Part shown: positions 24,939-64,000 of the stretch, piece after piece
How the letters are laid out: each line of letters opens with the position of its first letter
Position numbering within the stretch: position 1 is the stretch's first letter
Sequence record: MN342150
DNA length: 64,000 nucleotides
Origin: Escherichia phage vB_EcoM_3HA11
Direction: 5' to 3' (one strand)
Translations under genes and position numbers: made by a program
Notes under the pieces: model-generated
What the model saw: only the letters and a program-made list of their open reading frames with translations
Databases searched by the model: none
Told to the model about the DNA's origin: nothing

Positions 24939-25466
24939 ATGATTGAAATATACACTGACGGGGCATCTTCCCCGCAGAAGACACAAGCCGCAGGTTGGGC
25001 ATTTGCTATCAGTCCAATCACTGGAGAGCAATGGAAAGTGTTTTATGGGTATTTACCCCCACCGTCAACGAATAATATCGCTGAGTTGCTTGGGGTTATA
25101 AACGCCTTGAAGATTCTATGGAAATTCTCTAATTGCGGGGAACGCTGTATTCCCTCAGCCCGTATTATATCCGACAGCCAATATGTTATCAATAGTGTTT
25201 TGGAGTGGCGTAGAAAATGGGAATATGAAGGGATGCCGCCTAAGAACACAGAACTTCTGCTCGAGTTGTTCGATTATTATGACAAAGTTTGTTCAATTTG
25301 TGAACTTGAATTAAAATGGGTGAAAGGTCATGCGGGGAATATCGGCAACGAAATCGCAGATCAGTGGAGCGTCAGAGCCAAAGAAAATAGCTCGATGGTT
25401 CTTGAAAATAATCGTTTTCTGGTCAGAAAGGTTGTTGGTTCTTTCAATGAATTCATTGGTATTTGA
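24939..25466 (+). CDS. ribonuclease HI (cellular type)
   Basis: IYTDGAS ... NNIAELLGVINAL ... ISDSQYVIN ... WVKGHAGNIGNEIADQWS covers the RNase H catalytic motifs (D, E, D, H..D). Confidence 0.8.
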   Translation: MIEIYTDGASSPQKTQAAGWAFAISPITGEQWKVFYGYLPPPSTNNIAELLGVINALKILWKFSNCGERCIPSARIISDSQYVINSVLEWRRKWEYEGMPPKNTELLLELFDYYDKVCSICELELKWVKGHAGNIGNEIADQWSVRAKENSSMVLENNRFLVRKVVGSFNEFIGI

Positions 25467-25477
25467 GGATTATCACA

Positions 25478-26248
25478 ATGGGTATGAATTTTGTAGACAG
25501 AGGTGATAACGTCACCAAATATTTCACAGACGAAGATAACGATCGAGTTGTGGGGATATTGCGTGATTGGATCCCTGCTCGTAAAAAGGCATTAGCCGAA
25601 GGAACACCCCTACCAAGAATCCCCAATTATGTGGCCATGAATGTTCAGATGATTATTAAGAACATGAGTATGCGCTACAACTATCGTGATTATCCATACC
25701 GCGAAGACATGGTCAGTGAGGCCGTTGTCAACATCCTTCGTTACCTCCATACATTTGATGTCAGTCATATTGGCAAGAAAGGAAAAATCAATTTTTTCTC
25801 TTGGGTAACGATGTGCGCCGACCGTTCATTCGCCAAGAAACTCACCAGTGAAGAAGAACACAATTATATCAAGTTGCGTTCCTTTGAAGAAGCAGGTGGG
25901 TTCGCTGCATTATCGGATGACCCAGACTTCCAACAACAAACCTTCGTTGATAGCACTGGGATAACGATGGACTTTCGTGAGCGTATCGGAAATTTTGAAA
26001 CTAAGAAAGAAGCCCAGCGCGAAAAGGAACGCCAAAAGCAAATCGCCATCAAAGAAGAGGAAAAGAATAAGAAAATTCCTCGCGGTATACTTCAATGTCT
26101 CACAAAGAGTGAAAATACCATTACCGCCGACGCCGAAGATAATTCAGACCATGACTTCGGCTCTACTCAATTTAGTCTTGAAGATATAATGGACAGCCCC
26201 ACATTGTTAGCCGAATCAGTTGGAGAAAAGAATAATGGCGATTGCTAA
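25478..26248 (+). CDS. 55: late-transcription sigma factor gp55
   Basis: Start at ATG 25478 with GAGGA RBS. Architecture and segments (ILRDWIP, RYNYRDYPY, FFSWVTMCADRSFAKKL) parallel T4 gp55 as recalled. Confidence 0.6.
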   Translation: MGMNFVDRGDNVTKYFTDEDNDRVVGILRDWIPARKKALAEGTPLPRIPNYVAMNVQMIIKNMSMRYNYRDYPYREDMVSEAVVNILRYLHTFDVSHIGKKGKINFFSWVTMCADRSFAKKLTSEEEHNYIKLRSFEEAGGFAALSDDPDFQQQTFVDSTGITMDFRERIGNFETKKEAQREKERQKQIAIKEEEKNKKIPRGILQCLTKSENTITADAEDNSDHDFGSTQFSLEDIMDSPTLLAESVGEKNNGDC

Positions 26249-27864
26249 AATTGGCGATTTACACATCGGGAGCCGCAATGGTTCCCGTTACGTTCGTGAA
26301 TTCATAAAGAATTATCTCATCAACTATTTTATTCCCGAATTGGTAGATGCAGACATTAAAGAAGTTTGGCAATTCGGCGACACATTTGATGTTCGTAAAT
26401 TTATGTACGGGCGCGACAAAGATTGGTTGAAAGATGAACTGACGCCAGCCCTGAGAAAGGCGGGTATCAAATGGAATGGCATCGTTGGAAACCATGATAT
26501 CACCTTAGAAGAATCTAACCGTATCAACTGGCCATCCTATCTGAATGAATTAGCGCCAGACGTCTATCATTATTACAGTGAACCCACTGAAGTTTCGATT
26601 GAAGGCGAAAAGGTATTGCTTCTCCCATGGATCAATAAAGAGAATTATGATGCATCTGTTAAAGCGATACAAGATACAGACGCCAAGTACTGTTTTGCGC
26701 ATCTGGAGTTGGCAGGGTTCAAAATGTACCAGTCCTCTGTATGTGATAAAGGTCAGATCGACGTGGCGCTCCTTTCCAAGTTCGAACGCGTGGATACCGG
26801 ACATTTCCATACCCGTTCGATGGAAGGTAACATTCAGTATATTGGGACTCCTTATCACCTTACCTGGGAAGACCATAAAGACGGGACGAACCGAGGATTC
26901 TATGTAGACGATATGAAAGGTGGGGAATTGTTTATTCCCAACAGCGAGCAACAAACGTTGTTCCGATTCATAGAATACGATTACACCCAAATGTCTTCCG
27001 AGAAACCATGATATCACCTTAGAAGAATCTAACCGTATCAACTGGCCATCCTATCTGAATGAATTAGCGCCAGACGTCTATCATTATTACAGTGAACCCA
27101 CTGAAGTTTCGATTGAAGGCGAAAAGGTATTGCTTCTCCCATGGATCAATAAAGAGAATTATGATGCATCTGTTAAAGCGATACAAGATACAGACGCCAA
27201 GTACTGTTTTGCGCATCTGGAGTTGGCAGGGTTCAAAATGTACCAGTCCTCTGTATGTGATAAAGGTCAGATCGACGTGGCGCTCCTTTCCAAGTTCGAA
27301 CGCGTGGATACCGGACATTTCCATACCCGTTCGATGGAAGGTAACATTCAGTATATTGGGACTCCTTATCACCTTACCTGGGAAGACCATAAAGACGGGA
27401 CGAACCGAGGATTCTATGTAGACGATATGAAAGGTGGGGAATTGTTTATTCCCAACAGCGAGCAACAAACGTTGTTCCGATTCATAGAATACGATTACAC
27501 CCAAATGTCTTCCGACACCGAAGGAAATTGGATAGACCCAGATTGGTTAAACAATGATTTGGGTATTGAAGGACAAATCGTTAAGGTGATTGTACAGAAC
27601 CGTGATAATGCTAAGCATTATGAAAAGTTCTGCGACGCGCTGAAGCGTTGTAAATGCATCGATTATAACTTTATAGACCGGACTATCACAGTTGCGTCTG
27701 AGAAGGTAGAAGTCACTGAAGAGATGGTGGCGACTGATGCTGTGGAAGTCCTGAAGAAAGATATCCGCGCCGCCAATAATATCCAGCGCCCTGAAAATGT
27801 TTGCAAATTAGCAGAACAATTCTATAATGCTGCCCAACAACGCCTGAACACATTGGATGCATAA
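26235..27864 (+). pseudogene. 47: recombination nuclease gp47 (Mre11/SbcD-like), frameshifted by a 514-bp tandem duplication
   Basis: Phosphoesterase motifs GDLHIG, GDTFD, GNHD, GHFH. The N-terminal frame stops at 27011 just inside copy 2; a second frame (27130..27864) repeats residues LLPWINKEN..YDYTQMSS and continues to the C-terminus. Confidence 0.8.
26488..27515 (+). repeat. perfect direct tandem duplication, 2 x 514 bp
   Basis: Copies at about 26488..27001 and 27002..27515; ORF-track pairs 26578..26907/27092..27421 (+) are identical and 26550..27041/27064..27504 (-) share an identical 146-aa stretch. 514 is not a multiple of 3. Confidence 0.9.
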
Positions 27865-27866
27865 TA

Positions 27867-30200
27867 ATGAGCAATGTAGATCTATTATCAAAATTTGGTT
27901 CGCTGTTGAAAGAAGCGGACACCCCTGTTACTGTTGAAGCTCCATTTGAGATCCGTGGGGATATTACTCACAAACTGACTTTCCATCGTGGTCGCGCTAA
28001 GAACTTTCGTTCTATCGGTAATGAATTCATGGAAATTGATTACCAACGCAATTCGGCAACCTTGGTTACATCCGATGACAATGGCGCTGGTAAATCTACC
28101 ATGCTTGTCTGGCTGCTGTTCTTCGTGCTGTACAACGACACATACAGCAAGAAAGAAAAGAAAGCCGGATTGGTTAACTCTCAAAACAAAAAGGAATGCG
28201 TGGGTGAAGTTGAGTTCTCCACTCGCGGAAGTGAATGGAAAGTCCGTCGTGGTATCAAACCTGATTTCGTAGAAGTCTATCAGATGGTAGACGGTGAGTG
28301 GAAGCAGGTCGTGAATGATGCGGCCAAAGCCGACATGAACAAATATATTGTGAATCTCATCGGCGTGGACCAGAAGATGTTCGAGAACTCTTTGGTTCTG
28401 GGCAAGGAGAAGTTTATTCCTTTCACAGAGATGTATACTGCTGACCGCCGCGCCATGGTTGAAACAATTTGGGACTTGGGTTTCTTCAGCCTGATGAATG
28501 AGGATGTTAAAGCATCTATCAAGGCGGTAACGAACGAACTCACGACGGTCACCAATGATTACGCCTTTCATGATGTGAATCTAAAAGGCCAGCAAGCGCA
28601 GTTGGAACAGATCAATAATTCCAATGCGATGATCCAGCAACAATCTGCGGATATCCTTGTCCAAGAGAAGGACCGTCTGAATAGCCTGAATTCAGATATC
28701 GGCGCAGTGCAGGAACAACTGACAGAGTCCCGTGCTCAAGACTCTAAATTGGAATCAGAATTATCAGAAGTCCGTAATCGCCTGAACGCTGAAATGAAGG
28801 TGGATATCGATTCCATCAATGACGAGTATTTTGCCAAAATTCAAGCGGTTCAGGATGAGGCTGATACCAAGGCTGAAGACTATGAACGTATCGAGGTGTC
28901 TGATGGCGAACGTTCATTACAAGAAATTCGGGAGAGAATGGCGGTAGTCGCGGAACGTAAAAATGATCTGGTCAGCCAACGGAATGCTAACCTGGATGAA
29001 CTGAACAAAGCATTAGCGCGGCGTCAGCAGGGTGAGAACTTCCGTATCAAATTCGTAACAGAAATGGAAGGACATGAATCTGCCATCAAACGTTTCCACG
29101 ATATGGGCACTTGCCCTACGTGTACGCAATTAGTGTCGGACGATACCAAATCACGCATTGAAAGTCAATATTATCCACAAATCAGTGAACTGACTGACAA
29201 GATTCTTCAGGTTGATACAGCCCTAGAAGAAGTGAATTCCCTGATTGAGAATTACAATGTCAGAGATTCAGAATTATCTTCTCAGATTTCGGTTATTGAC
29301 AAAGAACTGGATGCTTTGCGCAATGAAATCCGAGAAGCGGAATCAGCGATCGCTGCATTAAAACGCGACATCCAAGGATTCTATGATGTCGCTGCTGTTG
29401 AGAAAACATCTTTACAGCGGGAACAACAGTCCAAAATTAACGACGTCCTCAAGGCCGTAGACACCCGTTACGAAGATATCACGACGTCAATCCGTCAAGC
29501 GCGTGAGCAGCTCTCTAAGAGCATCAACGACACGGCTGATAAACTCACCAGCCTGAAATCACGCCGTGCCCCTCTGGAGGCATCCATTGCCGATTTAGAG
29601 CGTAAATTGGCGGTTAAGCCGACACCAACTGACGCCCTGGAAGAAGAGATCGCTCGCATCACGGCATTAATGGAAGATCTGAATGCGCGGCGCGTAAAGT
29701 TGGATGAGAAATTGCAAGACCTGAACCATCTTCTGTTCTTCCTAAAAGATGATCAGACCAAGGCTCGAATTATCAGCCTGTATTTGCCTTTCCTCAATAG
29801 TAAAATAAACGAGTATCTTGAAGCACTCAATATGTTCTTGGATATTGCTGTTGATGATACATTTGAAATCACCATGAGCGCTGCAGGTCGTAAAGGGCAA
29901 AGCATCTTCTCGTTATCTACTGGTCAGCGTAGTCGCCTGAACCTGGCTGTGACATTAGCTTTACGAGATGTTGCAAACCTCAAGGCGTCGGTGCAATGTA
30001 ACCTGTTTGTGTTAGATGAAATCCTTGAGAACATGAGCGAGCGCGGCGTACAAGAATCGGTTGAGATGCTGAAGCATAAATTTGGCGGGAACAATCTGTT
30101 CGTTATCAGTCAACGCGAGCAGGAATTCCAAGAGTATTTCCAACACAACATCCGTTATGGTCTGCGTAATGGCATGACTGAAGTGATTAAGAAGGATTGA
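27867..30200 (+). CDS. 46: recombination ATPase gp46 (Rad50/SbcC-like)
   Basis: N-terminal Walker A DDNGAGKST, long coiled-coil middle, zinc-hook CPTC, C-terminal signature/Walker B region (LFVLDE). Confidence 0.85.
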   Translation: MSNVDLLSKFGSLLKEADTPVTVEAPFEIRGDITHKLTFHRGRAKNFRSIGNEFMEIDYQRNSATLVTSDDNGAGKSTMLVWLLFFVLYNDTYSKKEKKAGLVNSQNKKECVGEVEFSTRGSEWKVRRGIKPDFVEVYQMVDGEWKQVVNDAAKADMNKYIVNLIGVDQKMFENSLVLGKEKFIPFTEMYTADRRAMVETIWDLGFFSLMNEDVKASIKAVTNELTTVTNDYAFHDVNLKGQQAQLEQINNSNAMIQQQSADILVQEKDRLNSLNSDIGAVQEQLTESRAQDSKLESELSEVRNRLNAEMKVDIDSINDEYFAKIQAVQDEADTKAEDYERIEVSDGERSLQEIRERMAVVAERKNDLVSQRNANLDELNKALARRQQGENFRIKFVTEMEGHESAIKRFHDMGTCPTCTQLVSDDTKSRIESQYYPQISELTDKILQVDTALEEVNSLIENYNVRDSELSSQISVIDKELDALRNEIREAESAIAALKRDIQGFYDVAAVEKTSLQREQQSKINDVLKAVDTRYEDITTSIRQAREQLSKSINDTADKLTSLKSRRAPLEASIADLERKLAVKPTPTDALEEEIARITALMEDLNARRVKLDEKLQDLNHLLFFLKDDQTKARIISLYLPFLNSKINEYLEALNMFLDIAVDDTFEITMSAAGRKGQSIFSLSTGQRSRLNLAVTLALRDVANLKASVQCNLFVLDEILENMSERGVQESVEMLKHKFGGNNLFVISQREQEFQEYFQHNIRYGLRNGMTEVIKKD

Positions 30201-35461: not shown

Positions 35462-35511
35462 ACCATAGCCCCTTCGGGGGCTAAATACATCAAAATCCTT
35501 AGGAGATCATG

Positions 35512-36081
35512 ATGAAACCGTTTATCGAATATTTTAAAGAACAAGCCCAGCAGCCGCAAACTCATGGCGGTATACAAGGCAAAAGTGTAACCATCACTAA
35601 ACAAGCCGATGGAACACAATGGTGCTCCGGCGCTACCGTGACCCAGATCACTCCTGACAATCAGGCCGATGTCTATAACCTGGAATTGACTAATGGCAAC
35701 ACCACTAAAGTGAAACTGACGCCGGACCAGGTTCATGCGGTTTCTGTGGGCAAAGATGTTGTTGCCGTTCATGACGGATACGAATTCTTCTTTGGTAAAG
35801 ACGCCAGCAAAGGTCAGGTCACAGAATCCTATGCTCAAGAACTAGCGAATATGGATAAGATGATCGGTAAAGCGCTGGGCGTTGGCAAATCTCGTAAAAG
35901 CGGTCGTACAGAGTTTGAATATTCCGGTATTCCTGGTATTGGAAAACCTGTCGCAATCGACTTCGGCGGCGAAGACGATCCGTATGTGATCGTCACAGTC
36001 GCTGGTAAACAGCATGACATCAGTAAGGGAAAAACCCTAGCTGTGGACATTGCCAAATATATCGGCGTGAAACCTGTCTAA
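35512..36081 (+). CDS. internal head protein candidate (CTS-bearing)
   Basis: RBS TAGGAGA; N-terminus MKPFIEYFKEQA resembles the T4 internal-protein capsid targeting sequence MKTYQEFIAEA. Confidence 0.55.
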   Translation: MKPFIEYFKEQAQQPQTHGGIQGKSVTITKQADGTQWCSGATVTQITPDNQADVYNLELTNGNTTKVKLTPDQVHAVSVGKDVVAVHDGYEFFFGKDASKGQVTESYAQELANMDKMIGKALGVGKSRKSGRTEFEYSGIPGIGKPVAIDFGGEDDPYVIVTVAGKQHDISKGKTLAVDIAKYIGVKPV

Positions 36082-36090
36082 GGAGGTTGT

Positions 36091-36330
36091 ATGAAAGGGT
36101 TCCCGGATTTCCTGAAAGAGGCGAAGGTTGACCATCGCCGCCTTGGACAACAAGGTATGTACGACATCACTGATGTTGGCCGCCCCGAAAAAGGCGAACT
36201 GATCGACTACTATGATCGTAACGGGGACAAACATCAGGGGAAAGTGAAGTCTGTGAACGCACAGAATATCATGACTCTGACAAACACCAGCACTGGTGAA
36301 ACAGTCAAACTGACTCTGATTAAGCCATAA
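36091..36330 (+). CDS. internal head protein candidate (CTS-bearing)
   Basis: RBS AAGGAGG; N-terminus MKGFPDFLKEAK. Confidence 0.55.
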   Translation: MKGFPDFLKEAKVDHRRLGQQGMYDITDVGRPEKGELIDYYDRNGDKHQGKVKSVNAQNIMTLTNTSTGETVKLTLIKP

Positions 36331-36360
36331 AAGAAACCCCGCTTCGGCGGGGTTTTTGTT
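36331..36360. terminator. bidirectional rho-independent terminator
   Basis: AAAGAAACCCCGCttcgGCGGGGTTTTTGTT between convergent genes (ends at 36330 and 36359). Confidence 0.7.
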
Positions 36361-36964
36361 ACTTCACGTACATACAGACCTGGACCTTCTTGCCTTTGTC
36401 GTTCTTGACTTCTACTAATTTAGAAGCGCCATTCAGCTTGACGACAGTCCCCTTTTCCTTCCCACCACTTGGCAATTCATATTCAATCTCTTCACCAGGA
36501 GAAGGCATGCCAGCGCTTGGCCCCATAACAGCAGAGATCTTGTAACGTGCCATACCAGGGCGACCACCTTTGAAGGCATACCAGCCACCTTCTTGCATGT
36601 CTTTCCACTGTTTGTTACCGTCAACAACAATGGATGGATTACCGAAACCGGCCTTGATACCCAGCAAGTCAATTGTCTTTCCCGACTTGTTGTATTTTAC
36701 GGCAGTGTCACCATCAAACTTGTCCAGCATCTGAGTACTGGCGAACTGCCCGTCTTTGATACCAGAAGCAGCGATAACGTCCTTGGCGTTTGTCAGGACA
36801 ATCTTGCGCCCGTCTGGGGTTTCGAAAGTCACCTTATCACCAGAAACATCGGCGTGGAGGAACGTACCCGCAACGTCTTCTGTTGATTTACCGATCTTGT
36901 CAGACTTGATATGTGCAGACATCGGCGGCGCGGCTTCGGTCAAAAAGTCTTGAAAAGTTTTCAT
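36359..36964 (-). CDS. internal head protein candidate (CTS-bearing)
   Basis: RBS TGGAGAA; N-terminus MKTFQDFLTEA is nearly identical to the T4 IPI/IPII/IPIII CTS (MKTYQEFIAEA), with a Glu-Ala processing-site-like junction. Confidence 0.65.
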   Translation of the reverse strand: MKTFQDFLTEAAPPMSAHIKSDKIGKSTEDVAGTFLHADVSGDKVTFETPDGRKIVLTNAKDVIAASGIKDGQFASTQMLDKFDGDTAVKYNKSGKTIDLLGIKAGFGNPSIVVDGNKQWKDMQEGGWYAFKGGRPGMARYKISAVMGPSAGMPSPGEEIEYELPSGGKEKGTVVKLNGASKLVEVKNDKGKKVQVCMYVK

Positions 36965-37051
36965 TTCGTTCTCCAGTTATATTATTCTATATAGTACCTC
37001 ATAGACCCCATTAACACTAAATACTAGACAGTTCAACAATAGGAAACAATC

Positions 37052-58920: not shown

Positions 58921-59966
58921 TGGAAATTAAAGCTATCAATAACAACGACATGCTGAAACAGGCTGTCTTGGCTATCCGTGAATACGGGATTGAATCTGAT
59001 CCTGGCAACGCGGAGATCAACACTGACGGCACCCGCTTTCTTGATGGTGTGACTATCACCGTCAGTGATATCCGTGACCGCTGGTTATCCGTTGAAGGTC
59101 GCAACTCATCGGCCATCGCAGCTATCGGTGAGACTTTCTGGGTGCTGGCTGGGCGCAATGACCTGAAGTTCCTGTCACGTGTCCTGCCCCGCGCTGCCAA
59201 CTTCTCCGACGATGGCCTAACATGGCGAGCCGCTTATGGGCCGCGCCTGTACGCCCATGGTCAGTTACAGAGCGTCATCAACCGTCTCCGCAAAAACATC
59301 AACACCCGTCAGGCGTATCTCACCATCTATGATCCGTCTCTGGACTCTGATGTTGGTCTGGCCAAGCACAACGGCTCAAACGAAGCGAAGACCAAAGACA
59401 TGGTGTGTAACCTGGCTCTGTTATTTGCTGTCGTTGAAGGTCGTCTGAACCTGACGGTCATCAACCGCTCACAAGATGTCCTGTGGGGTATGAGTTCAAT
59501 CAACTTCATTGAGTTCTCTATCCTTCAGGAAGTGATCGCGCAGGTGCTGGATGTAGACGTCGGCCAGTACAAGCTGTTCTCTAACAATCTTCATTACTAC
59601 AACAATGAAGTCAGCCAGAAGCAGCTGGGTAAGATCACGAAGGACACCAAAGTAGAAGCTGGGTTCATCAACTCCATGATTCACTTCACGAACGTGACCA
59701 ACCAGAACCATATCCGCAATCTGTTCACTGGTGTGCTTCATCACTGTGATATCGGTAGCCCGTGGGAAACTGTGGTCGCCCACCTGAAGGAGTACGATGC
59801 TGATCGCGGCCTGATCGTACAGATGGCATACTGCCTGTACTGCAAGCTGAACGACAAGCTCATCAACATGAACCTGATTCAGGATCATGGCCTGAACATT
59901 GCACTCACTCACTCTCCGGTTGACCGCAAGATCGTTGATCCAAAGTTCCTGGAAGGTGCGTTATGA
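58920..59966 (+). CDS. thymidylate-synthase-family deoxypyrimidine hydroxymethylase (dUMP- or dCMP-hydroxymethylase-like)
   Basis: TS-fold core C-N-x18-RSQD-VLWG (catalytic Cys, RSxD 19 residues later, conserved Gly). Cys is followed by Asn not His; the base-specificity position after the Gly is I/N, not the Asp of T4 dCMP hydroxymethylase. 348 aa. Confidence 0.6.
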   Translation: MEIKAINNNDMLKQAVLAIREYGIESDPGNAEINTDGTRFLDGVTITVSDIRDRWLSVEGRNSSAIAAIGETFWVLAGRNDLKFLSRVLPRAANFSDDGLTWRAAYGPRLYAHGQLQSVINRLRKNINTRQAYLTIYDPSLDSDVGLAKHNGSNEAKTKDMVCNLALLFAVVEGRLNLTVINRSQDVLWGMSSINFIEFSILQEVIAQVLDVDVGQYKLFSNNLHYYNNEVSQKQLGKITKDTKVEAGFINSMIHFTNVTNQNHIRNLFTGVLHHCDIGSPWETVVAHLKEYDADRGLIVQMAYCLYCKLNDKLINMNLIQDHGLNIALTHSPVDRKIVDPKFLEGAL

Positions 59967-60532
59967 TGTATCCAAACCTTGAATTCTTTACGGGGCGTAA
60001 GCGCTCCGGCAAGGACTTCTGTTTGGAGTCCCTGATCAGCTACCACCATCTACAGGGAGACAAGGACATTCAACGCCTGTCTTTCTCGGATGAGCTGCGC
60101 CGTGTTGCCAACTACATCTACCCGTGGCTGCCTGAGGAGGTGGAGGATGCTGTGAAGGACGTTTCATTCATACACCCCGATAACCCCAAGGGCTTAACTC
60201 CACGGCAGATCTGGCTTCATCTCGGCAGCGATACGGGCTTGCGTTACGTACAGCCTGATCTGTTCCTGGCGTTCTTCAAGCGCTTCCAGCTTCCTCTGGT
60301 AGAGCAGAACCCTCACGTCCATTATATCGTGAGCGACCTGCGCACCCCCCAGGAATATGAATGGGCGCTGAGTACGAAATGTCCTATCACCCGCATTTCA
60401 AAGGCCGACCGCGCTGGTATCATAGAGGACGATATAGAGGCTTTCATTGATAAGATGGAAGTTGATTATGAATTTGTCAATCCGTTTGAAGGTTGGCAAC
60501 CGTTCGTCAAATTTTATAGGGATCGGAAATGA
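59963..60532 (+). CDS. deoxynucleoside monophosphate kinase (T4 gp1-like)
   Basis: N-terminal P-loop FTGRKRSGKD matches T4 gp1 (LSGVKRSGKD); ATGA overlap with the upstream gene. Confidence 0.65.
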   Translation: MMYPNLEFFTGRKRSGKDFCLESLISYHHLQGDKDIQRLSFSDELRRVANYIYPWLPEEVEDAVKDVSFIHPDNPKGLTPRQIWLHLGSDTGLRYVQPDLFLAFFKRFQLPLVEQNPHVHYIVSDLRTPQEYEWALSTKCPITRISKADRAGIIEDDIEAFIDKMEVDYEFVNPFEGWQPFVKFYRDRK

Positions 60533-61077
60533 TCACAACAGAGCATATTAAAAGTCTGCTCGAACTTCAAAAGGCCACCAACGTGGCCTATTTTGGGGAA
60601 GAGTGGAAGAATGTATGGAGTCAGAACGCGATCATCAACTCCATCTATCGCGAGTGGGCGGAGTTCCTTGACGAAACCACCCGCGACTGGAAGGTCTATG
60701 GTAACGACATCGGGTTTCACCATGCGAACGCAGTCTATGAACTGGTGGACGTGGTTCACTTCATGCTGTGTTTCATCCTCGTCGATCGCACCAAAGGAGA
60801 GATTGAAGAAGAAATGGAGAATCTTGGCCGACGGCTCGTCCCAGGGACGAGTTCAGTAGGGCATCGCAATGTTACGTATCGCCTTGGGCAGTTCATGAAC
60901 GATCCTTGCGTCGAGACTCTCATGGTCTTCCTATCGACTGTGTGTTCTTACATGGAGATCGACATTGAGACCTACATGCTGGCACACAAGCGCAAAAACG
61001 ATCGCAATCGGCTGCGTGCTGCTGGCGGCGCGAATTACGATAAGTCCGCAGAAACCCCTCTGACCCTGGAGTTCTAA
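60529..61077 (+). CDS. MazG-like dNTP pyrophosphatase (gp56 dCTPase/dUTPase-like)
   Basis: All-alpha protein with acidic helix motifs (REWAEFLDE, ELVDVVHFML); positioned in the nucleotide-metabolism block. Confidence 0.45.
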   Translation: MITTEHIKSLLELQKATNVAYFGEEWKNVWSQNAIINSIYREWAEFLDETTRDWKVYGNDIGFHHANAVYELVDVVHFMLCFILVDRTKGEIEEEMENLGRRLVPGTSSVGHRNVTYRLGQFMNDPCVETLMVFLSTVCSYMEIDIETYMLAHKRKNDRNRLRAAGGANYDKSAETPLTLEF

Positions 61078-61607
61078 TGTTTACAGTTGTCGTATCATAT
61101 TATGCGGAACATGCCCCGCAAATGGCAGAGAACTTTGCTGAGTTTATTAAACCTGGCAGACATGTCGTTATCGCGACCAAATTCAACAAAGAACCAGATG
61201 GTGCGGCTACTGTAACGCAACATATTACAACTCCAGAGCCGGAAACCCTTTTCAAACGTATTGAAGATTTTGCTTTTGGCGGGGAAGAAATTCCAGAGTC
61301 ATTACAGCATATCTATTTTGAAGATGCGATATATTATGTTCATGCTATTCCAAAGGATGTTACAACTGAACAAATGATGTATATCCTGAATATCGCATTG
61401 AATGTTTCTTGTGTCAACAGGGCACAGCACAATCGTCTGCGTAATATGTATTTAACAGAACGCGGGGGTTCCGAAATTAACGATGAAAAACTCCCGTCAA
61501 TAATGGCGATTCACGAAGCAATCAATATATTGTCCAAGAAAGTCTTGGGCACCGATTTATTAATTACGATCAACAAGCAAGAGGAAACGAAATGGCCGAT
61601 TCATTGA
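61077..61607 (+). CDS. hypothetical protein (176 aa)
   Basis: ORF; no recognisable domain. Confidence 0.45.
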   Translation: MFTVVVSYYAEHAPQMAENFAEFIKPGRHVVIATKFNKEPDGAATVTQHITTPEPETLFKRIEDFAFGGEEIPESLQHIYFEDAIYYVHAIPKDVTTEQMMYILNIALNVSCVNRAQHNRLRNMYLTERGGSEINDEKLPSIMAIHEAINILSKKVLGTDLLITINKQEETKWPIH

Positions 61608-62677
61608 TGGCTCGCATGCTCAAGACAGCAAAGAAACTGGACCCGAATGCCGAAGTGCTGTCAAAGACCGATGCGCTGAAGCCTGACATTATTTGCAGTA
61701 CGGGTATTCCTATTCTGAATTTGGCCTGGTCCGGTCGTATTGATGGTGGTCTGATATCAGGCATCAAACAGTTGGTGGGGGATTCTCGTACATTCAAAAC
61801 CATGTTTGGGCTGGTAGATGTTAAGGCTTACATGGATAAGTTTCCTGATGCAATTTGTATCTTCGCGGATTCCGAAGGCGGTGCGAATGAAAACTACTGG
61901 ACATCTATGGGTATTGACATGGACCGTGTCTTGTATCTGCCGATTGAAAACGTTGAAAAGACGAAGATCAAGCTGACACAGCTTCTGAATGATGCTCAGA
62001 AAGGTGACAAGATCATCGTATTCATCGACTCAATCAGCCAGTTGCCGTCTACCAAAGAAGTTGATGATGCTATCGCGGGCAAAGACACACAAGATATGAC
62101 TCGCGCTCGCGCTCTCAATAGTTTTTGGCGTGTTATCACTCCGTTGGTCACTGAAAAGAAATTCGTTTTGGTATGGATCAACTCGTACTATGATGAAATC
62201 GGGAACCAATACGCCGAGCCGAACATCAAAGGCGGTAAACAGGGGTTCCTGTCTTCTAACCAATTGTGGTTCATCACGCGTTCTCAAGTAAAAGAAGACA
62301 AAGACCTTTTGGGATGGCAGTTTACAGTCAACATCATGAAAGGTCGCTTTGTCCGTGAAAAATCCAAGTTCCCTGTCACTGTGTTGTATGAAGGCGGTAT
62401 TGACCGTTGGTCCGGTATGTTAGAAATTGCGCGCATGCTGGGGTATGTGGATTTGGTGAGTGGTTCTTGGTATCAACGTACTGCCAAAGGCGGGTTTGAT
62501 CCAGAAAAAGAAAAGAAATATCGTAAGGCAGAGCTGGGGGATGACTTCTGGTATCCGTTGCTGGAAAACCCAGACTTTGTTGACGATGTGAACAACATGT
62601 TCGGTATCTCTCAGAGTTCGGTTATGCCTGCAGATATGCTGGAGCGCCTCGATAATGTCATCAAAACAACCGAGTAA
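61592..62677 (+). CDS. uvsX: UvsX recombinase (RecA/Rad51 family)
   Basis: Near-colinear with T4 UvsX: GIPILNLAWSGRIDGGL, VFIDSISQL, DMTRARALNSFWRVITP, LLGWQFTVNIMKGRFVREKSKF, GGIDRWSGMLEIARMLGYV. Confidence 0.9.
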   Translation: MADSLMARMLKTAKKLDPNAEVLSKTDALKPDIICSTGIPILNLAWSGRIDGGLISGIKQLVGDSRTFKTMFGLVDVKAYMDKFPDAICIFADSEGGANENYWTSMGIDMDRVLYLPIENVEKTKIKLTQLLNDAQKGDKIIVFIDSISQLPSTKEVDDAIAGKDTQDMTRARALNSFWRVITPLVTEKKFVLVWINSYYDEIGNQYAEPNIKGGKQGFLSSNQLWFITRSQVKEDKDLLGWQFTVNIMKGRFVREKSKFPVTVLYEGGIDRWSGMLEIARMLGYVDLVSGSWYQRTAKGGFDPEKEKKYRKAELGDDFWYPLLENPDFVDDVNNMFGISQSSVMPADMLERLDNVIKTTE

Positions 62678-62984
62678 TATTGCAGGGGGAGGAGACTCCC
62701 CCGTTAATTACAAAATCATCGACCCTGGTTCTGATCAGTTAGCTATTATCGAAATAACGGAAGGCAAGTTCCGCGGTGTTCAATTTCGTATAGGAAAAGT
62801 GGGTGTCCATGTAGACAATGGAGAACCTCGGTTATCCTTTACGACGGATATATTGAAGAAACCATGGCGTTTGTTATTTGTTAATTTGAAAGAAAATGAC
62901 TTGTTCACTGTGGTGTCTGGGGATATCTTAGTTGATCTGATACAGCAAAATGCTCAGGATTACAACAAAATTTTGGTGGGGTAG
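62655..62984 (+). CDS. hypothetical protein (109 aa) between uvsX and gene 41
   Basis: Occupies the position of gene 40 in T4; homology not established. Confidence 0.4.
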   Translation: MSSKQPSNIAGGGDSPVNYKIIDPGSDQLAIIEITEGKFRGVQFRIGKVGVHVDNGEPRLSFTTDILKKPWRLLFVNLKENDLFTVVSGDILVDLIQQNAQDYNKILVG

Positions 62985-62990
62985 TTGCCA

Positions 62991-64000
62991 ATGTTACTCG
63001 AATCTGTCGTGCTTTCCCAATTAATCTACAATGAAGAATATCAAAGAAAGATCCAGCCGTATTTGAAAGCCGATTATTTCGATAACGAAGGCGAGAAGAT
63101 TATATTTGGTCTTATAGACCATTACACTTGCGAATATAATGCTCGTCCTTCGGTTGAAGCGCTGTCTATTATGCTGGAAAAGACTTCGCTCAATGAACAC
63201 GTATTTGATCAGGCCATTTCTGCTCTTGAAAATATTAATGACAATACTTTTCATCAGGACTGGTTAGTAAAAGAAACAGAAAGTTGGGCGCGTCAGAAAG
63301 CTGTTCATAACGCAATTAGACAAGCCGTTAACATATACGGCGATGAGAAACGCAAAGATGAGATGAACAACATCCCTACTTTGCTGCAAGAAGCCCTGGC
63401 GATTCAGTTTGATTCATATCTCGGTCACATCTATTGGGAAATGGCTGAGCAACAATACGACCACATGAACTCTAATGAAGCGAAGATCCCTTTCGCCGTA
63501 GAGATATTCAACAAAGCAACTCGTGGTGGTGTTGGCAAGAAGACATTGAACATCGTTACAGGCGCAATCAACGCAGGTAAGACAACAACTCTGATTGATT
63601 TGGCTGCTGGTTATGCCGAGCAGGGGTTGAATGTGTTCGTATTCACCCTCGAAGTGGCCGAGAACGTCTGGCGACACCGCCTTGATGCCCGTATGATGCG
63701 CAGGGACTTCGAGTCCTTAGAGAAGCTCTCACGGCACGAGTATATTGCCACCATACAAAAACTGAGAACCCGTCAAGACGGTTCCATGAAGGGTGATATT
63801 GTTATCAAGGAATATCCTTCGGGCGCGGGGCATACAGGTTTGTATCGTCGTGATATTCTTGATTATGCGACTGTAACAGGAATTACACCCGATGTCATCA
63901 TTATTGACTACTTGGGGGAATCTGCGTCTTCTCGCCTTCCCGCTCACTTGATGCAAAACACCAACGTGTATTATACATCCGTGGCGCGAGAATTCCGTGC
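62991..64000 (+). CDS. 41: replicative DNA helicase gp41 (DnaB-like), partial; continues beyond the window
   Basis: Not in the ORF track (no stop in window). N-terminus MLLESVVLSQLIYNEEYQRKIQPYL parallels T4 gp41 (MVEIILSHLIFDQAYFSKVWPYM); Walker A GAINAGKTT. Confidence 0.8.
   Translation, partial: MLLESVVLSQLIYNEEYQRKIQPYLKADYFDNEGEKIIFGLIDHYTCEYNARPSVEALSIMLEKTSLNEHVFDQAISALENINDNTFHQDWLVKETESWARQKAVHNAIRQAVNIYGDEKRKDEMNNIPTLLQEALAIQFDSYLGHIYWEMAEQQYDHMNSNEAKIPFAVEIFNKATRGGVGKKTLNIVTGAINAGKTTTLIDLAAGYAEQGLNVFVFTLEVAENVWRHRLDARMMRRDFESLEKLSRHEYIATIQKLRTRQDGSMKGDIVIKEYPSGAGHTGLYRRDILDYATVTGITPDVIIIDYLGESASSRLPAHLMQNTNVYYTSVAREFR

Follow-up and report, generated by a model that had tools for sequence, protein, structure and literature searches.

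Gene content of the gp47 locus

The window, a 64-kb stretch of DNA from Escherichia phage vB_EcoM_3HA11 (MN342150), belonged to a Kuttervirus (Vi01-like, Ackermannviridae) and included a gene block (Table 1) that is annotated in Salmonella phage vB_SenM_UTK0005 as RNase H, Gp55 late sigma factor, Gp47 recombination protein subunit and Gp46 recombination endonuclease subunit. Genes in the block were tightly packed, with the ATG of gp47 lying 14 nt inside the end of gp55 (26235-26248) and the stop of gp47 and the start of gp46 only 2 nt apart (27862-27869, TAATAATG), a spacing that fits translational coupling of the RNaseH-gp55-gp47-gp46 block. In the record as written, gp47 was interrupted by a perfect tandem duplication of 514 bp.

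With one copy of the repeat deleted, gp47 became a single ORF, 376 codons long when read from TTG 26220 and 371 aa when read from ATG 26235, and the 371-aa protein was 100% identical to gp47 of UTK0005 (WDR21384). Residues are numbered here from the ATG, which is the start annotated in relatives; the TTG is where the mechanically listed ORF starts. The restored protein matched PHROG_100, 'SbcD-like subunit of palindrome specific endonuclease' (E=3.9e-108), over residues 1-370, and it possessed all five calcineurin-like phosphoesterase motifs: DxH (D8, H10), GDxxD (G48, D49, D52), GNH[D/E] (G85, N86, H87), H (H156) and GHxH (G189, H190, H192). The residues in brackets were invariant in an alignment of gp47 from Kuttervirus, a T4-type phage, a cyanophage, a vibriophage and a campylophage. 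A Pfam search of the restored protein returned no family at E<=0.01, an NCBIfam search returned only Mre11_Sulfo (E=0.0012, far below the cut-off of that family), and a PDB sequence search gave no match. The identification of the gene in an earlier note, made from the sequence alone, as gene 47 encoding an Mre11-like nuclease agreed with the PHROG_100 match, the Gp47 annotation in relatives, the five motifs and the neighbouring gp46; this gp47 is a typical representative of the phage gp47/SbcD/Mre11 family.

Table 1. Coordinates of genes, repeat copies and reading frames in the 64-kb window.
Feature	Coordinates	Strand	Details
RNase H gene	24939..25466	+	PHROG_531, E=1.9e-60; upstream in the conserved block RNaseH-gp55-gp47-gp46
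gp55-like late sigma factor gene	25478..26248	+	PHROG_234, E=3.8e-53; 3' end overlaps the gp47 start by 14 nt
Truncated N-terminal gp47 frame	26235..27011	+	258 aa: residues 1-255 followed by EKP, then TGA
Copy 1 of the 514-bp unit	26488..27001	+	gp47 codons 85-256; from repeat search and direct comparison
Novel junction	27001..27002	+	…ATGTCTTCCGA / GAAACCATGATAT…; 0 bp microhomology
Copy 2 of the 514-bp unit	27002..27515	+	100% identical to copy 1
Candidate C-terminal gp47 frame	27130..27864	+	+1 frame; 244 codons from TTG 27130; residues 128-371
gp46 Rad50/SbcC-like partner gene	27867..30200	+	PHROG_77, E=2.4e-169; 777 aa, intact
ORF in or overlapping 35826-37049	35509-36081	+	
ORF in or overlapping 35826-37049	36091-36330	+	
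ORF in or overlapping 35826-37049	36359-36964	-	

The duplication and its effect on the reading frame

Direct string comparison of 26488-27001 with 27002-27515 found 0 mismatches over the 514 bp of each copy, and the period-514 identity run (s[i]==s[i+514]) was exactly 514 positions long. An exact match of this length is far beyond chance, and the pair was the sole repeat of at least 40 nt found by a repeat search of the whole window. Tandem Repeats Finder returned nothing for the window because its longest period (500) is shorter than the unit. Both unit boundaries fell inside codons, the first base of copy 1 being the second base of the Gly codon in the GNHD motif. The junction, which can also be written …TCTTCCGA / GAAACCAT…, had no microhomology on either side, and the nearest 5-mer shared by the endpoints, GGAAA, leads to a unit of 522 bp, not 514. 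A microhomology-mediated origin was rejected on these grounds; microhomology at endpoints is usual, not obligatory, for slippage or illegitimate recombination.

As 514 is 3x171+1, the second copy shifts the frame, and gp47 therefore ended at a TGA (27009-27011) 10 nt into copy 2, with the terminal residues …YTQMSS-EKP. This N-terminal product retained all five phosphoesterase motifs (residues 8-192) and would lose the C-terminal 115 residues, including, by analogy with Mre11 proteins, the Rad50-binding end; in Mre11 proteins it is a C-terminal helix-loop-helix that binds Rad50 (bioRxiv 10.1101/2025.07.29.667502). The C-terminal part of gp47 was readable only in the +1 frame, which was open from 26974 with TTG 27130 as its first start codon and 27238 as its first ATG, and translation from the TTG would yield a product without motifs I-III. 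A single uninterrupted gp47 frame that includes the C-terminal region was absent from the record as written and present after removal of one copy. This layout reproduced that of the earlier note, which had described identical head-to-tail copies at 26488-27515, an N-terminal frame stopping at 27011, a C-terminal part in a separate frame at 27130..27864, and an ORF of about 376 aa with all motifs once one copy is taken out. We also considered programmed frameshifting or translational coupling at the junction and rejected both: the ATGA at 27008-27011 lies in the third frame and encodes MISP-stop, and the next start in the C-terminal frame sits 119 nt downstream.

Copy number in related phages

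Megablast of positions 25400-28900 matched 265 phage records, the best being UTK0005 (OQ359884) at 99.8%. Among the 40 matches listed of these 265, 34 spanned 2987 bases, which is the 3501-base query minus 514 and is consistent with a single copy, while the other six differed through small indels, a shorter match or endonuclease insertions. BLAST alignments to Matapan and UTK0005 split precisely at 27001/27002, with subject ranges that overlapped by 514 bases. The restored gp47 matched 2450 records by tblastn (T4-like phages and Ackermannviridae); all 40 rows sampled from these were in one piece, at full length in close relatives, and a single full-length, uninterrupted gp47 was present in each of the 23 IMG/VR relatives that include the region. 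The single-copy version that the earlier note proposed to look for in related genomes was found in 23 of 23 IMG/VR relatives, and the 34 of 40 listed spans of 2987 bases were consistent with it. The 24-mer across the junction was absent from IMG/VR viral contigs, metagenome contigs and GTDB genome contigs, and exact-protein look-ups for the truncated N-terminal fragment and for gp46 retrieved nothing on record.

After removal of one copy, positions 25502-28330 (2.8 kb; gp55, gp47 and the start of gp46) had no nucleotide difference from UTK0005, whereas the rest of the window was ~96% identical to UTK0005 and to every other record. From this pattern of identity, the tract looks like a recent recombinational exchange (mosaic tract). 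A 27-mer over five differences between the window and UTK0005 was absent from metagenome and genome contigs, and in IMG/VR it matched only three more distant relatives.

Variation of other kinds was also seen around the block. In BRM 13312, Mutine and Maynard, an extra GIY-YIG homing endonuclease or 'putative endonuclease' lay inside the RNaseH-gp55-gp47-gp46 block and lengthened their spans by ~0.7 kb. The record of UPM 2146 (NC_049472.1) ended 5 bp after gp47, and the IMG/VR contig IMGVR_UViG_2974650499_000001 started at gp46; breakpoints of records and contigs therefore occur in this neighbourhood.

Base-level accuracy of the window and opening of the record

Compared with Matapan, all other small indels in the 64-kb window were intergenic, formed a compensated cluster in a divergent stretch, or were multiples of three, and no other uncompensated coding indel or frameshift was found. 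The window therefore appears accurate at the base level, with the duplication as its sole gene-breaking anomaly, and we rejected a low-quality, indel-rich assembly as the source since uncompensated coding indels were not found elsewhere in it.

Position 1 of the window aligned to position 64008 of Matapan, whose record opens at the end of rIIA, and to position 64020 of Mooltan, placing the start of the window within 7-19 bp of base 64001 in the records of relatives opened at rIIA. Circular permutation and terminal redundancy, without fixed ends, are described for the genomes of Kuttervirus, as is their re-opening at rIIA (PMC10282790). The coincidence of coordinates is circumstantial and suggests that the window represents bases 64001-128000, or the second tile of 64 kb, of a record that opens at rIIA like those of its relatives, which in turn implies manual or scripted re-orientation of the assembly.

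Two further regions departed from Matapan. Identity fell to 81-86% across the uvsX region (59963-62991), against ~96% elsewhere, and an HNH endonuclease gene found upstream of the gene 41 helicase in Matapan was missing from the window (8 bp in the window vs 537 bp in Matapan), a pattern reminiscent of presence or absence of a homing endonuclease with flanking co-conversion. Positions 35826-37049 held ~0.94 kb more DNA than their Matapan counterpart (1223 bp vs 285 bp; ORFs in Table 1).

Origin of the duplication

The earlier note had left two options, a real duplication or an assembly artefact, and the evidence favours the latter. We consider the second copy to be, most likely, an artefact of sequence finishing and not phage DNA, and infer that its history was as follows. 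An overlap of 514 bp would have been left untrimmed at a join. Such a join could have linked two overlapping contigs or the opposite ends of one linear contig whose length slightly exceeded 100% of the circularly permuted genome, and cutting and re-opening at the conventional rIIA start would then have turned the overlap into an internal head-to-tail duplication. Artificial overlaps of contig ends, contigs of >100% of the genome and internalised repeats are recognised errors of phage assembly (PMC5923482; PMC8785237). Old contig ends abutted with a 514-bp overlap would give a perfect, blunt and arbitrarily placed tandem duplication, as seen here, and identical copies with 0 bp of microhomology are what would be expected of an arbitrary cut-and-paste. 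The real phage would then encode a single, intact 371-aa gp47 (Mre11/SbcD-like nuclease) that would act with gp46 (Rad50/SbcC-like) in DNA-end resection.

We favour a finishing artefact because the duplication was unique among the relatives examined, its junction was blunt and arbitrary, the window was otherwise clean and the record had apparently been re-opened. Amber mutants of T4 genes 46 and 47 are DNA-arrest conditional lethals. The T4 Gp46/Gp47 complex is regarded as critical for resection of double-strand breaks (PMC3016280), and this role, together with the conservation of gp47, would make a plaque-purified, high-titre stock with a broken gene unlikely a priori. An artefact accounts for every observation and spares us from assuming such a stock. 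Against it stands the size of the repeat: 514 bp does not correspond to the k-mer overlaps of fixed length that de Bruijn assemblers in common use produce (127 bp in a SPAdes example; PMC5923482), and an artefact of this length would have to come from a manual merge or from an assembler of the overlap or long-read type. The blunt junction is also compatible with a real duplication.

A real and very recent tandem duplication, fixed in the stock or in a major subpopulation and frameshifting gp47 into two products, we regard as unlikely. Headful-packaging phages tolerate ~0.5 kb of extra DNA. The duplication is unambiguously present in the sequence as given, the remainder of the window carries no signs of sloppy assembly, and the complete identity of the copies is in keeping with a recent event; intragenic tandem duplications do arise in lytic phages (PMC6365445). 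The products could be a 258-aa N-terminal fragment with five motifs and possibly a C-terminal fragment initiated at TTG 27130 or ATG 27238, so that a functional Mre11-Rad50 complex would be absent or split. However, the event would be out of frame and would break a gene that was uninterrupted in every relative examined, leaving an N-terminal fragment without the C-terminal region, which is Rad50-binding in Mre11 proteins (bioRxiv 10.1101/2025.07.29.667502), and a C-terminal frame whose earliest ATG is at 27238 and whose TTG start is weak. Since the phage encodes UvsX, UvsY and UvsW (assigned from the annotation used for the comparison with Matapan), homologous recombination should, moreover, quickly remove a perfect direct repeat of 514 bp, and single-copy revertants would regain gp47, although, going by T4 genetics, loss of gp46/gp47 would itself lower recombination and slow the loss of the repeat. 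The 0 bp of microhomology at the endpoints and the absence of the junction 24-mer from viral, metagenome and genome contig collections also count against a real event. We find it improbable that a viable, plaque-forming Kuttervirus physically carries the duplication and either dispenses with its MR nuclease or runs it as two polypeptides; in the latter case the N-terminal polypeptide would supply the nuclease core, and a C-terminal one with its own initiation would bind Rad50.

Least credible, and in our view highly implausible, is that the 514 bp were a direct terminal repeat, true or called by software, that was written at both ends and internalised on re-opening: the length is within the range of short direct terminal repeats (463 bp, for example; PMC5923482), but the circularly permuted, terminally redundant genomes of Kuttervirus are described as having no fixed ends (PMC10282790), fixed termini inside a codon of a conserved gene would mean that injected DNA lacked an intact gp47, and a repeat merely called by software is a sub-case of the finishing artefact.

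Consequences for the record and for gp47

The duplication most likely falls into a class of phage-assembly errors that is already well described; less probably, it is an inactivating mutation of a transient kind. Neither would be new, and the main value of the finding lies in quality control of the record. Without correction, gp47 would appear in the record as two fragments or as a pseudogene, the stated genome length would be 514 bp too great, and false claims of gp47 loss or splitting in Ackermannviridae could follow. A real duplication would mean that propagation of a Vi01-like phage is possible with a Mre11 subunit that is broken or split, which would be moderately interesting for recombination biology as a natural experiment on the essentiality of the MR complex in T4-like, recombination-dependent replication; it would still be a single unstable mutation and not a new system.

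Comparison with known systems

The restored protein could be aligned with gp47 of the T4 type, and all five phosphoesterase motifs were invariant; in T4 itself, gp47 and gp46 form a Mre11/Rad50 (SbcD/SbcC-like) recombination nuclease. The order in which gp47 follows gp55 and precedes the Rad50-like gp46 is shared with T4-related genomes. The gp47 in the window differed from T4-type gp47 in being only ~30% identical, in a C-terminal third that aligned poorly and in being interrupted as written. Tandem duplications in T4 rII, known from the genetics of the 1960s-70s, are unstable, and headful T-even-like phages can carry duplications at the cost of terminal redundancy. These rII duplications were recovered under selection for heterozygosity and segregate rapidly, whereas data from the window give no hint of selection for a broken gp47.

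The tail-fibre duplications of Enterococcus phage EfV12-phi1 (PMC6365445) are likewise perfect, intragenic and tandem in a lytic myophage. They are, however, adaptive and in frame, vary in copy number, recurred in four of four coevolution replicates and are tied to host resistance, whereas the duplication in the window is out of frame, has exactly two copies and lies in a DNA-metabolism gene. The EfV12-phi1 duplications also produced coverage spikes and were confirmed by PCR and long reads, while that in the window was seen in the sequence of the record. Also close to our case are contig-end overlaps or terminal redundancy that become internal when phage genome assemblies are re-opened (Phage Annotation Guide, PMC8785237; Philipson et al. 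2018, PMC5923482). The 514 bp found here are unlike a standard assembler k-mer (127 bp, SPAdes), and we infer membership of this class from the shared features: the repeat is perfect, head-to-tail and arbitrarily bounded, the genome type is circularly permuted, the record was apparently re-opened at a conventional gene, the remainder is intact and relatives lack the repeat.
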